Assembly (NCBI GenBank): GCA_964631145.1
Contig: CAZVXT010000001.1
Span: forward strand, 553,797 to 617,796
DNA length: 64,000 nucleotides
Source: an uncultured Candidatus Saccharibacteria bacterium
GTDB lineage: Bacteria; Patescibacteriota; Doudnabacteria; UBA920
Direction: 5' to 3'
The notes under the pieces were generated by a model. That model ran no database searches. It had not been told where the DNA came from and was given only the letters and a program-made list of their open reading frames with translations. Position numbers and translations under genes: made by a program. Every line of letters starts with the position of its first letter. The stretch's first letter is position 1. Below, piece after piece: positions 25,979 through 59,742 of the stretch.

Positions 25979-26473
25979 TTACTCCCAAACCTCGTCTGCA
26001 CTTGGACCATAAATTGAAGGAACCTTTCCGCCCGCAGCGCGCAAATAAGCAGCTAGTTGTCCACGATGATGAATGGTGTCAAAAAGCATACCAAGAAGAG
26101 CAGAAGATCTTGTTCCTTCATCCCCATAAAAATTAAAAGGCTTTTCTAATTCTGATTCATCTATATTGTTAAGAGCTGATAAAAATTTTTCGTTTATTTC
26201 GTCCAATATTTTTGCTCCGCCAATACCATCCTCAAAAGGTTCTACTTTTGCATAAACGTCTTTCCACTCTTCCATTTCAAGTGCCTTATCTCTACTCAAA
26301 AATAATTCTAAAGTACCGAGTTCTCCAATAATCGCAAGTGCTAAATCTTTGGCGTTTCTAGATTTTTCATCTGGCTTATAAGACATTCCTGATGCAGGTA
26401 TATTGGCAATTACTCTAGAAAAAGTTGCTAATTCTTTAGTAAAATACTTAATTAGTTCTTGTTTTGTTAACAT
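25979..26473 (-). CDS. DinB/YfiT-like (DinB_2 superfamily) protein
   Basis: C-terminal FDTIHHRGQLAAYLRAAG four-helix-bundle His motif. Confidence 0.6.
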   Translation of the reverse strand: MLTKQELIKYFTKELATFSRVIANIPASGMSYKPDEKSRNAKDLALAIIGELGTLELFLSRDKALEMEEWKDVYAKVEPFEDGIGGAKILDEINEKFLSALNNIDESELEKPFNFYGDEGTRSSALLGMLFDTIHHRGQLAAYLRAAGGKVPSIYGPSADEVWE

Positions 26474-26535
26474 AATCTATAAATTAATTATAGATACATT
26501 TTATCATTTTCCTACATTTGGGTAAAATTATTATA

Positions 26536-37776: not shown

Positions 37777-37977
37777 TTAATGTGCGGCTCTCAACTTTGC
37801 TGCTTTTTCAACAACCTTTCTTTGATCTCTGTTTGCTTCCTTTACCACCTTTTCTATGACTTTTTTCTTATAAGACGATGAGGCATCATGAGAGAACCTA
37901 GAAAATTTGCTTTGCTTTATTTTATTTACCTTACCGCTAGTACCAAATATTTTATTTAAAAAATCCATCATATTCAT
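37777..37977 (-). CDS. Small basic protein (66 aa), translationally coupled to zeta-like kinase
   Basis: ATGA overlap with upstream gene; K/R-rich helical sequence. Confidence 0.4.
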   Translation of the reverse strand: MNMMDFLNKIFGTSGKVNKIKQSKFSRFSHDASSSYKKKVIEKVVKEANRDQRKVVEKAAKLRAAH

Positions 37978-38675
37978 TCGATTAATTTTCTAAGCTCGTC
38001 TTCATTATAAAAAATGTCTAGATGATTGTCAATATTTTCAATATCTAATCTTGTCTTACCAATATCATTATCATAATCTTTAATTACTAAATTTAACCTG
38101 ATTTGATGTCCAAAATCATTTTTTAACTTATTGACATTATTTTTTGAGGAGACAAAACCATTAATAAAAGCATCTTTTGTAATGTTTCTTCCTTCTAATA
38201 ATTCTCGATCTTGTGTGAACTTCCAAGCTATTATCGGATCCTGATACAAATAATATATTTCAATATAATTTCTGTATCGTAAACTTAACTCAATATTAGA
38301 TTTAGCAACAACGTAATTTGCCATTGTACCATCCAATACAAAGTTTTGATTATTTTTTAAAACAAAGTTATAAATTTCTGAAACACCAATACTTATTGCA
38401 TTTTGAAATAAATAAGCATTTGTACCATTATATATTTCAGAGGGCAAAGTATTTCTAATTTCATCCGGATCAATTCTCACCACACCATCACCTAGTTCTT
38501 TAATCAAATCTTTTGAAAATTCAGTTTTACCTGCACCTGGTGAACCAGCCATAAATACTGAAGCTGGCTTATCATCCGGTAAATAAATTTTTACATTAGC
38601 AAATTTATTAATTAAATCGTTTTTAGACTTACGAATATGTTTCGCTGCTTGCTTAGATAATTCTTCATCTTTCAT
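37974..38675 (-). CDS. Zeta-toxin-like P-loop kinase family protein
   Basis: VFMAGSPGAGKTEFSK Walker A, downstream RIDPDEIR and VLDGTM resembling PF06414; start moved to MKDEEL (38675) because the longer ORF overlaps tRNA-Trp. Confidence 0.5.
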   Translation of the reverse strand: MKDEELSKQAAKHIRKSKNDLINKFANVKIYLPDDKPASVFMAGSPGAGKTEFSKDLIKELGDGVVRIDPDEIRNTLPSEIYNGTNAYLFQNAISIGVSEIYNFVLKNNQNFVLDGTMANYVVAKSNIELSLRYRNYIEIYYLYQDPIIAWKFTQDRELLEGRNITKDAFINGFVSSKNNVNKLKNDFGHQIRLNLVIKDYDNDIGKTRLDIENIDNHLDIFYNEDELRKLIE

Positions 38676-38716
38676 AAACTCATCATAACAAAAAACCGCC
38701 TTCACGGCGATTTTTG

Positions 38717-38790
38717 TGGCAGGGGCTGTAGGAATCGAACCTACGCAAATGGTTTTGGAGACCATTGTACTACCATTATACGAAGCCCCC
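38717..38790 (-). tRNA. tRNA-Trp (anticodon CCA)
   Basis: Cloverleaf: GGGGGCT acceptor, anticodon loop CTCCAAA, T-arm GTAGGTTCGATTCCTAC, CCA encoded. Confidence 0.85.
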
Positions 38791-50260: not shown

Positions 50261-50524
50261 TTTCTTAATTCTCTCCCAAAATATTAATAATTTAATATTT
50301 TGATTAATTAATCTGTTGATTTACCCAACCTTTGCCGGCTGTAAATAAATCATATAAGTATACTTTATTTTTACTATTTTGTCAATATTTATAATCGGTG
50401 ATTGGTCATAAATATAACCAAAATAACAAAAAATGGCTTAATTTAGCCATTTTATGAGATAATTATATCCATTATTATATAGTTTGACAAGTCGGTTAAT
50501 TACTAGATTTATAATATTTTTATA

Positions 50525-50710
50525 TTAAATACCTGAATAAATAACACCTTTAAATTCGTTATTAACGATTAAAGGGATTCCTTTAAAAGCTTTAACCTGT
50601 TGAGCCAATCTTTGCACAGTACAAGCATGTTTTCTACCTGTAGCACAGTGGGCACAAAGTCTGCTTAATTTATTTATAATATCTCGTTTTGTTAATTCTA
50701 ATTCTGACAT
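50525..50710 (-). CDS. Small Cys-containing protein co-transcribed downstream of lexA
   Basis: 12-nt spacing after lexA stop; CAHCATGRKHAC motif. Confidence 0.4.
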   Translation of the reverse strand: MSELELTKRDIINKLSRLCAHCATGRKHACTVQRLAQQVKAFKGIPLIVNNEFKGVIYSGI

Positions 50711-50722
50711 ATATTTCTAATA

Positions 50723-51334
50723 TTATTCTAAGTTTCTAATTACCCCTACAACCTTACCCTGGATCATCCACTCTTCTTTGGGGTAAATATTTTGATAATC
50801 CGGGTTTTCGGCTTTTAAGTAAGCCCGGTTTTTAATTTGCACGAACCTTTTAACTGTTGCTTCGTCGTGCAGCAAAGCAACTACGATATCATTATTTTTT
50901 GCTTCTTTTGTTGGTCTGACAATTACCAAATCTCCTTCATGGATGCCGGCATTAATCATACTGTCTCCCCTAACTCTCAATAAAAATACATCTCGCCTAC
51001 CTTTGATAAATGTTTGAGGTAAATTTATCCAGTCTTCTATAAACTCTTCTGCTAAATGAGGACTACCCGCTTGTACTGATCCCAAAATAGGAACCCGGAT
51101 TAAACCTTTTTCTAAGCTATCATTTAAACTATTAAGAACTTGAATACCTCTTGCTTTACCGCTGGTCTTTATATAGCCACCTTCTTCTAATGCAGATAAT
51201 AATTTCGCTACAGCATTTTTAGATTTTACTTCTAAATGATTTGCCATTTCTGATAACGATGGAGGTAAATTATAATCTCTAATTTGTGAGACTATAAATT
51301 TTAATAATTGTTTTTGTCTGTCTGTTAGGCTCAT
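50723..51334 (-). CDS. lexA: LexA repressor
   Basis: N-terminal wHTH, cleavage-site region VQAGSP, Ser-Lys dyad (VRGDSMINAGI…VKRF). Confidence 0.85.
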   Translation of the reverse strand: MSLTDRQKQLLKFIVSQIRDYNLPPSLSEMANHLEVKSKNAVAKLLSALEEGGYIKTSGKARGIQVLNSLNDSLEKGLIRVPILGSVQAGSPHLAEEFIEDWINLPQTFIKGRRDVFLLRVRGDSMINAGIHEGDLVIVRPTKEAKNNDIVVALLHDEATVKRFVQIKNRAYLKAENPDYQNIYPKEEWMIQGKVVGVIRNLE

Positions 51335-51345
51335 ATATTTATTCT

Positions 51346-51363
51346 TAATCTATTTATAGATTA
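51346..51363. promoter_or_regulatory. 18-bp perfect palindrome upstream of lexA (candidate SOS/LexA operator)
   Basis: TAATCTAT-tt-ATAGATTA 12 nt upstream of lexA start; adjacent cGTTCGTAC element. Confidence 0.4.
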
Positions 51364-51438
51364 TACGTTCGTACACCCAATGTCAATATGTAAAAAACAA
51401 GGCAAATTTGCCTTGTTTAATAATTTATCCACAATTAT

Positions 51439-51669
51439 TTATGATAGTAAATATTTTAAGAATCCTATTAATGTATCAATAACAGTTTTAAGAACTGGAA
51501 TTGATGAAGGCAGTAATACAACTAAAAGAATTAAGTATATAAAATTCTTTTTCAGAACTTGAATTACAGAATAAACCAATAATCCAGCAATAATAAAAGG
51601 GATGACTGGGCGAATAAACTCTGGAAAAATATTGAGGATGCTATTATAAATATCTATTAAAGCTGTCAT
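51439..51669 (-). CDS. Small membrane protein (76 aa)
   Basis: Two hydrophobic helices; same strand as lexA. Confidence 0.35.
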   Translation of the reverse strand: MTALIDIYNSILNIFPEFIRPVIPFIIAGLLVYSVIQVLKKNFIYLILLVVLLPSSIPVLKTVIDTLIGFLKYLLS

Positions 51670-58914: not shown

Positions 58915-58965
58915 ATGTTCGCACCAGCCCTTGCTGATTAAGCTTTTTCTTATTTTTTTCATAAG

Positions 58966-59035
58966 GCACTAACAGGAATTGAACCTGTTATTCTAGATTA
59001 CTAGTCTAGCATATGTCCATTTGTACTTTAGCGCC
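58966..59035 (-). tRNA. tRNA-like element with AGU anticodon (possible tRNA-Thr(AGU) or pseudo-tRNA)
   Basis: Acceptor GGCGCTA/TAGTGCC, 3-bp D-stem, perfect anticodon stem CTAGA/TCTAG with loop CUAGUAA, T-arm ACAGG-TTCAATT-CCTGT; no CCA encoded. Confidence 0.35.
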
Positions 59036-59546: not shown

Positions 59547-59586
59547 AATTTTATTTTCCTCTTTTTTATTTTTTATTTTAGACCAA

Positions 59587-59742
59587 TGGAGATGGCGGGA
59601 ATCGAACCCGCATCCAAGAATTTTAATACCTATTTATGCAGATTCAACTAAGTTTGCAGTCCTTAGTAACGCAAGTCCTTCTCGTGGTTGGTTATCCTTA
59701 CTTTCTACCCGGCTAAAATCCCTGTCGAAGCCTGTCACCCCC
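59587..59742 (-). ncRNA. ssrA: tmRNA-like gene (ssrA), unusually short (~156 nt), CCA not encoded
   Basis: 5' GGGGGUGACAGGCUUCGACAGGGAUUU matches the tmRNA 5' consensus; 3' GCGGGUUCGAUUCCCGCCAUCUCCA forms T-arm plus acceptor; G3-U70 Ala identity pair present; candidate tag ORF GCA AAC UUA GUU GAA UCU GCA UAA. Confidence 0.5.

Follow-up and report, generated by a model that had tools for sequence, protein, structure and literature searches.

A predicted two-gene lexA operon with a conserved promoter dyad and a zinc-motif mini-protein in Doudnabacteria-like Patescibacteria

Autoregulation of LexA is textbook biology, and the operators with which the locus described here can be compared are the Cheo box of Bacillus DinR/LexA, CGAACRNRYGTTYC, and the cyanobacterial box, RGTACNNNDGTWCB. 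Small SOS-induced checkpoint genes lie beside lexA in other bacteria: sulA is found downstream of lexA in Pseudomonas, and yneA, sosA, chiZ and divS represent the Gram-positives. Checkpoint genes may also be controlled by DnaA boxes, as is the case for sda of Bacillus. Patescibacteria are uncultured episymbionts with minimal gene sets; their LexA motif and regulon have reportedly been derived by comparative genomics, by Sanchez-Osuna, Barbe and Erill in 2017. A passage of PMC7739468 cites the 2017 Patescibacteria SOS study among the cases of LexA direct-repeat motifs. Here we analyse the lexA locus in a 64,000-nt stretch of contig CAZVXT010000001.1 (G+C 29-36%), from a Doudnabacteria-like member of this group; the whole stretch is called the window. 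All features of the lexA operon are on the minus strand, and gene order is given in the 5' to 3' direction of transcription.

The first-pass annotation of this DNA had proposed a lexA gene, a palindrome in front of it as a possible lineage-specific SOS operator, and a co-transcribed small gene with a cysteine motif behind it. The comparison with 84 related loci, numbered with the prefix L, retains the two genes and moves the operator. We consider it likely that lexA and the mini-protein gene form a two-gene, self-repressed SOS operon belonging to Doudnabacteria-like Patescibacteria, a judgement that covers the operon, its switching and the role of the mini-protein jointly. The switch is probably a conserved 16-mer that lies beside the palindrome.

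lexA and the mini-protein gene

The first gene of the pair (50723-51334, ATG at 51334) encodes a 203-aa protein with a winged-helix DNA-binding domain and an S24 self-cleaving domain, and is identified by these as lexA, the gene of the LexA repressor. It matches PF01726 (LexA_DNA_bind, E = 4.7e-15, residues 2-63) and PF00717 (Peptidase_S24, E = 7.2e-34), and it passes the NCBIfam equivalog TIGR00498 'lexA' with 200.9 bits against a cut-off of 110.95. Its VQAG (Ala-Gly cleavage site), GDSM (serine) and TVKRF (lysine) motifs align to their counterparts in the solved LexA structures 8s7g and 3k2z. Ala89-Gly90, Ser124 and Lys162 are invariant in 42 distinct orthologues, as are 84 of the 203 residues altogether, and the recognition-helix residues S38, K39, N40 and K44 do not vary among the LexA orthologues either. 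The recognition helix, SKNAVAKL, presumably differs from those of Bacillus and E. coli. Across the related loci LexA, recognition helix included, is 77-92% identical. When the window is compared with L001 or L003, LexA is 85-86% identical, whereas ribosomal proteins L10 and L7/L12 reach 74-76% and 80-82%, and the other neighbours 36-59%. Such conservation is unusual for a transcription factor.

The second gene (50525-50710) encodes a mini-protein of 61 aa that carries CAHCATGRKHAC and begins 12 nt past the lexA stop codon, both as first described. The 12-nt spacer (50711-50722, TATTAGAAATAT) is too short for a promoter or a terminator, so the layout leaves no room for separate signals, and no additional promoter is evident within the operon. 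Terminators stand on both flanks. Downstream, an intrinsic terminator (50430-50453), a 9-pair stem AAAATGGCT...AGCCATTTT followed by a T-rich tail, closes the lexA-mini operon. Upstream, a hairpin with a T-run (51395-51418; CAAGGCAAATTTGCCTTG then TTTTTT on the minus strand) is the predicted intrinsic terminator of a 76-aa membrane-protein gene (51439-51669), from which it insulates the lexA promoter; equivalent hairpins are present in orthologous loci.

The pairing of the two genes extends through the whole family. Relatives of the mini-protein were found in 46 species genomes, all of them metagenome-assembled genomes labelled Patescibacteria, Doudnabacteria or "Saccharibacteria", and on 33 further metagenome contigs. 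In every locus with enough sequence, including the 46 species genomes, the metagenome loci and the distant member P0048, lexA lies directly upstream on the same strand. The placement thus fits the proposed co-transcription in every locus that can be judged. The gap is 2-30 nt in most loci, and the longer gaps hold inserted material. Since the pair persists despite insertions of selfish genes, we argue that lexA and the mini-protein gene are functionally coupled.

The inserted material is varied. Between lexA and the mini-protein gene we observed a four-helix protein of the 23S rRNA intervening-sequence type, a GIY-YIG nuclease and a recurrent 123-128-aa protein without a Pfam match. Extra genes were noted in the operons of L005 (2617-2988), L042 (2582-2968), L047 (1724-2107), L037, L039, L041 and L045 (in the lexA/mini interval), and also of L038, L036, L044 and L046. 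In L038 and L044 the insert is a PD-(D/E)XK (GxxExxY) gene, and it separates the promoter from lexA. G+C-rich non-coding inserts of 160-206 nt occur between lexA and the mini-protein gene in L011-L015 and L028/L031; they look like small mobile or structured elements, and that of L028 is internally repeated.

The mini-protein family is narrow and confined to Doudnabacteria-like Patescibacteria as judged from the searches: a profile search of 1.84 billion cluster representatives returned only 18 true members, all of mini-protein size, and a search of 5.8 billion proteins gave 33 homologues of 59-85 aa. Two long profile matches, P0052 and P0053, were rejected as translated repeats. No relative was found in viral contigs, and a phage origin was discarded on that account. 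In the 33 homologues L18-C19-A20-H21-C22, H28, C30, G44, P46-L-I-V-N50, F53 and G55 are invariant, and the conserved motifs can be written as CxxC-x5-HxC and G(V/I)PLIVNNEFKG, the latter in a C-terminal beta-hairpin (GIPLIVNNEFKG, also given as GVPLIVNNEFKG). The most distant members keep C19, C22, H28 and C30 but lose H21, which makes CxxC-x5-HxC (CCHC) the likely metal site. Among 48 distinct sequences, pairwise divergence at the first, second and third codon positions amounts to 0.16/0.07/0.62 for the C-terminal and 0.35/0.21/0.56 for the N-terminal block, and this third-position bias indicates a real gene under purifying selection. The small cysteine-motif reading frame proposed at first pass is thus a conserved gene.

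The family proteins are basic, with a net charge of +2 to +7, and none of their hydrophobic segments would reach across a membrane. From the family alignment AlphaFold2 predicted a small fold with confidence (predicted local distance difference test score of 84), in which a helix (3-16), a short helix at the CxxC, a helix (31-40) and a beta-hairpin (45-57) can be recognized. We obtained no Pfam or NCBIfam match at E <= 0.01 to 0.1, no PDB sequence match better than E = 0.03 and no match in a fold search. The mini-protein fits neither the family profiles nor the fold of a solved member of SulA (PF03846), DinI (PF06183), YebG or the YneA-type LysM inhibitors. It is probably a soluble, basic protein that would bind zinc through its CCHC site.

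What might such a protein do? Our best guess, held with low confidence, is that it is a cytoplasmic checkpoint protein or modulator, and it is a good candidate for an effector of the damage response. The guess is drawn by analogy with the small genes beside lexA elsewhere, sulA of Pseudomonas and the division inhibitors of Gram-positives. With these it shares that a small gene is tied to lexA and would be expected to be de-repressed together with it. Unlike them, it shows no similarity in sequence or fold, and whereas the Gram-positive inhibitors are membrane-anchored, the mini-protein lacks a hydrophobic segment. To our knowledge, none of the products of sulA, yneA, sosA, chiZ and divS carries a CCHC metal motif. 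The mini-protein would bind a highly conserved partner via its invariant C-terminal hairpin.

Alternatively, the mini-protein may be a partner of LexA or RecA rather than a downstream effector, acting as a co-repressor or a modulator of cleavage in a role like that of DinI or phage GIL01 gp7. The strict co-encoding with LexA on one mRNA, by which the two proteins would be made together even at the basal level, the basic character of the mini-protein and the unusual constraint on LexA (85-86% identity against 74-82% for L10 and L7/L12), which fits an extra binding partner, all agree with this. However, the mini-protein has no similarity to DinI, RecX or known modulators, and it evolves much faster than LexA (44-78% identity). 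We regard such a partnership as a serious alternative, possible but not probable. An effector, or checkpoint, role is the reading that we prefer, and it has its own difficulties: it rests on analogy, for a protein with neither a homologue of known function nor a fold match, and the presence of both proteins on one predicted mRNA, with some mini-protein made at the basal level, suits a LexA partner equally well.

The conserved dyad in the lexA promoter

DNA upstream of lexA was extracted from all loci, and 39 non-redundant promoters were aligned on their -35 elements. The resulting consensus is TTGACA-nnn-GGTG(A/T)ACG-nnn-GTATA(C)TAT, in which TTGAC, GGTG, ACG and GTATA are invariant or nearly so and the surrounding sequence is variable. 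In the window the -35 hexamer TTGACA lies at 51381-51386. The -10 region (51358-51365), read from the sequence, is either TATAAT (51365-51360, after a 15-nt spacer) or TAATCT (51363-51358, after the 17-nt spacer TTGGGTGTACGAACGTA), and the -10 consensus of the orthologous promoters is GTATACTAT. The GGTG.ACG block and the G that precedes TATA are not promoter-consensus positions. They belong to a 16-mer, GTGTAC-GAAC-GTATAA (51361-51376; 51359-51378 as a 20-mer with its flanks), which sits in the promoter spacer, overlaps the -10 and is the predicted LexA operator. The GTTCGTAC element that the first-pass annotation had noted next to the palindrome is present at 51367-51374 and is a part of this 16-mer read on the opposite strand; the window reads GGGTGTACGAACGTATAATC.

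In the family as a whole the box is a dyad with the consensus GGT(G/A)(A/T)AC-N4-GT(A/T)(T/C)ACC. At the promoter the clade consensus reads GTGAAC-N4-GTATAC, and second sites have GGTAAAC-N4-GTTTACC. Such a second copy of the box is present in about half of the related loci and is often perfectly symmetric (for example GGTAAAC-N4-GTTTACC, GGTGTAC-GTCG-GTACACC or TGAAC-N4-GTACA). Its position depends on the lineage, with distances from the first copy of 43, 28 or about 50 nt on the upstream side and of 21 or 34 nt on the downstream side. A position weight matrix built from these sites finds a single match in the 64-kb window (22.9 bits), no other position exceeding 8 bits. Run on 323 kb and a further 226 kb from the related loci, the matrix reaches 11 bits or more only at lexA promoters, save for one weak match of 14.4 bits inside a coding region, in L011 and L013. 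The exact degenerate pattern is likewise confined to lexA promoters, about 610 kb having been scanned in total. Relaxed matches in the window are at or below chance (12 observed, 17.6 expected).

The AC-N4-GT core with GAAC, GTAC or AAAC half-sites places the 16-mer in the box class of Gram-positives and cyanobacteria, and it probably represents this lineage's version of the LexA boxes of the GAAC-N4-GTTC / GTAC-N4-GTWC class. Like the Cheo and cyanobacterial systems, the locus combines the LexA domains and catalytic residues with a dyad of 4-nt spacing and AC-N4-GT core that covers lexA's own promoter. The GTAC-N4-GTAT of the window matches the cyanobacterial box (GTAC-N4-GTWC) at 7 of 8 core positions; in most orthologues the left half is GAAC or AAAC, and the clade shares the class of the cyanobacterial box but not its consensus. 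The GAAC-N4-GTTC dyad of the Cheo box, flanked by C/G, is not found here: the window site GTAC-GAAC-GTAT differs at 3 of 8 core positions and the flanks of its clade are GGT/ACC, while the N4 spacing and the AC...GT core are shared. The lineage also differs from both described boxes in that the inner positions tolerate G/A and A/T (GTGAAC, GTGTAC, GTAAAC), and in that the predicted operator occupies the spacer between -35 and -10 and merges with the latter. An invariant box is matched here by invariant residues of the recognition helix. The idea of a lineage-specific LexA operator before lexA is hence supported by the conserved 16-mer in 39 promoters, although the element first chosen for it, the palindrome, was the wrong one.

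From these elements we infer the following course of events. A sigma-70-type promoter with its -35 at TTGACA (51386-51381) would start transcription of lexA and the mini-protein gene, and a LexA dimer on the GTGTAC-N4-GTATAA dyad, lying over the spacer and the -10, would block RNA polymerase. Upon DNA damage, RecA filaments would trigger self-cleavage of LexA at Ala89-Gly90 by the Ser124/Lys162 dyad, for which the residues are present. This RecA-dependent de-repression would free the promoter, and LexA and the mini-protein would both be made from one mRNA ending at 50453-50430.

In L036, L038-L041, L044-L047, L024, L025 and L029 a perfect LexA box, such as GGTAAAC-N4-GTTTACC, forms the terminator hairpin of the upstream 77-aa gene and leads into a T-run, and one such element may act as both a terminator and a second operator.

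Several points weigh against the operon being switched in this way. The assignment of the box to LexA is based on its position, its dyad symmetry and its likeness to known boxes. With its right half the promoter box runs into the -10, and its conservation could in part be a promoter constraint. Some of the second boxes double as terminator hairpins of the upstream gene and may be conserved as such. Finally, neither the window nor the 84 related loci contain recA, uvrA, uvrB, dinB, recN, ssb or polymerase IV/V, and support at the level of the regulon is therefore missing.

An alternative reading, for which the overlap with the -10 and the terminator role of some second copies can be cited, is that the 16-mer serves another regulator or is merely a conserved stretch of promoter spacer, with LexA binding elsewhere, for example to a direct-repeat motif. 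The 2017 Patescibacteria SOS network concerns the same superphylum and the same regulator, and it is placed among the direct-repeat motifs where PMC7739468 lists it, whereas the box of the present locus has inverted symmetry. In the second copies the inner bases are arranged as inverted, not direct, repeats (GTAAAC/GTTTAC, GTGTAC/GTACAC). Hairpins that bear a box vary only within the limits of the box consensus, whereas free variation is seen among ordinary terminators in this position elsewhere, the window included; and the second copies of L003, L006, L021, L031 and L042 are not terminators. The 16-mer moreover has the size, the symmetry and the AC-N4-GT core of the commonest class of LexA boxes, and it is restricted to lexA promoters. 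We therefore think it improbable that the 16-mer is not the LexA site.

A second conserved site accompanies the dyad. At 51425-51433, 5 nt past the stop codon of the 76-aa reading frame, there is a 9/9 match to the DnaA box (TGTGGATAA(C) in the direction of lexA, TTATCCACA on the plus strand; the site is also given as TGTGGATAAC). Two exact copies occur in the window and about 80 in some 550 kb of related loci, almost all of them just upstream of the lexA promoter and on the same strand. The box is at the same position in L001-L050 and L056-L081, that is, in nearly all related loci, and where a second LexA box lies upstream it starts 14-15 nt before the 20-mer that holds that box. Its conservation suggests an input of DnaA into the expression of lexA and the mini-protein gene. 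The arrangement resembles that of Bacillus sda, in which a perfect DnaA box also lies just upstream of the promoter of an operon with a very small protein. It differs in that there is one box only, a predicted DnaA site about 40 nt upstream of the -35 and beyond the terminator, and in that the operon also has LexA boxes. The region was rejected as a replication origin (oriC), showing neither a switch in GC skew nor a local cluster of boxes.

The inverted repeat beside the dyad

The first-pass annotation had placed an 18-bp perfect palindrome 12 nt before lexA. The repeat is real (TAATCTATTTATAGATTA, 51346-51363); it is, more exactly, an 8+2+8 inverted repeat, TAATCTAT-TT-ATAGATTA, with perfect 8-bp arms and a centre TT that is not self-complementary, and it ends 11 nt before the ATG. 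It spans the -10 and the point where transcription is predicted to begin. A part of its symmetry is explained by this overlap, since CTAT and ATAG, the inner portions of the arms, fall on the -10 and on an "ATA" of weak conservation close to that point. When the 33 nt from the -10 to the ATG are shuffled at matched composition, it has a p of about 0.02.

The comparison with the related loci gives it no support as a conserved feature. It is absent from the related loci, 84 in all, a search of 51 of which returned no copy, and the closest relative, L005, whose LexA is 90% identical, has an unrelated sequence at this position. Arms of 8 bp at this spot are confined to the window among the 39 promoters. 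At p <= 0.05, 3 of the 39 hold a local inverted repeat stronger than in shuffles of matched composition, which is the rate expected by chance. A conserved LexA operator in the form of this palindrome was rejected. Uniqueness in the genome and absence upstream of recA and other SOS genes had been named at first pass as arguments against an operator; within the 64-kb window, which holds no recA, uvrA or dinB, the palindrome has no second copy. Its half-site TAATCTAT occurs 11 times (6.1 +/- 2.1 expected), with 2 of the 11 in the palindrome itself, and we judged it not to be enriched. Inverted repeats as such (arms of 8 bp or more, loops of up to 4 nt) are abundant in the window, 42 against 13.5 +/- 4.2 in shuffles, and most of them are terminators.

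We conclude that the palindrome is probably an incidental by-product of the AT-rich sequence of the -10 and start site, and at most a genome-specific addition. An addition of this kind would be a site for another DNA-binding protein or a recent auxiliary operator on top of LexA control. The perfect arms over the start site, with their local p of about 0.02, and a near-copy elsewhere in the window could be cited for it. However, the palindrome is single and unconserved, AT-rich TATA-type sequence readily forms inverted repeats, and near-matches are close to the chance level (5 in the window, 1.6 expected, with 2 of 100 shuffles reaching 5), which leaves such a site with quite a small chance. 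The near-copy, TAATCTATAAATTAATTA, agrees at 16 of 18 positions and lies at 26473-26490, where an unannotated gene and truB diverge; in AT-rich DNA such a match has probably arisen by chance. That the palindrome is itself the lineage-specific LexA operator is highly improbable: its place over the -10 and predicted start is the classic one for a repressor site, and its local p is low, but it is missing from every related locus although their LexA, recognition helix included, is 77-92% identical, orthologous promoters show no excess of palindromes at this place, its half-site is unlike the conserved box and is not enriched, and the window has no second copy of the palindrome.

Other features of the window and significance of the operon

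A few observations concern genes away from lexA. A transfer-messenger RNA was detected with Rfam (60.9 bits) at 59584-59742 on the minus strand. It is only 159 nt long: it retains both tRNA-like ends, but some 88 nt take the place of 300 in the Rfam model, most of the pseudoknots appear to be missing, and ARAGORN did not detect it. A tRNA at 58964-59035 on the minus strand (Rfam, 48.2 bits) was not reported by ARAGORN either. The listed start of a Zeta-toxin-family reading frame (37974-38765) overlaps tRNA-Trp (38717-38790), and translation probably starts further downstream. At the window's left end, the reading frame at 219-2153 has domains of type IV secretion coupling proteins (TrwB/TraG-like).

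For the biology of LexA, the predicted operator contributes no more than a variant, particular to this lineage, of a box class already known. What is new is a narrowly distributed, strongly conserved zinc-motif protein of about 60 aa that is fixed to lexA in every genome carrying it and has no detectable relative of known function. New, too, are a LexA that evolves more slowly than ribosomal proteins in these reduced genomes and a DnaA box that is conserved by its promoter. It is tempting to speculate that the LexA system of Doudnabacteria-like Patescibacteria may be reduced nearly to this operon, in which an exceptionally conserved LexA would sense damage via its box and replication status via the DnaA box, and the main output would be a new class of cytoplasmic CCHC zinc mini-proteins, unrelated to SulA, YneA, SidA and other known effectors, that halt division or replication; we give this larger picture a rather small chance of being right. 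The operon offers a defined DNA site and a concrete, clonable candidate for the arrest of the cell cycle after DNA damage in Patescibacteria.

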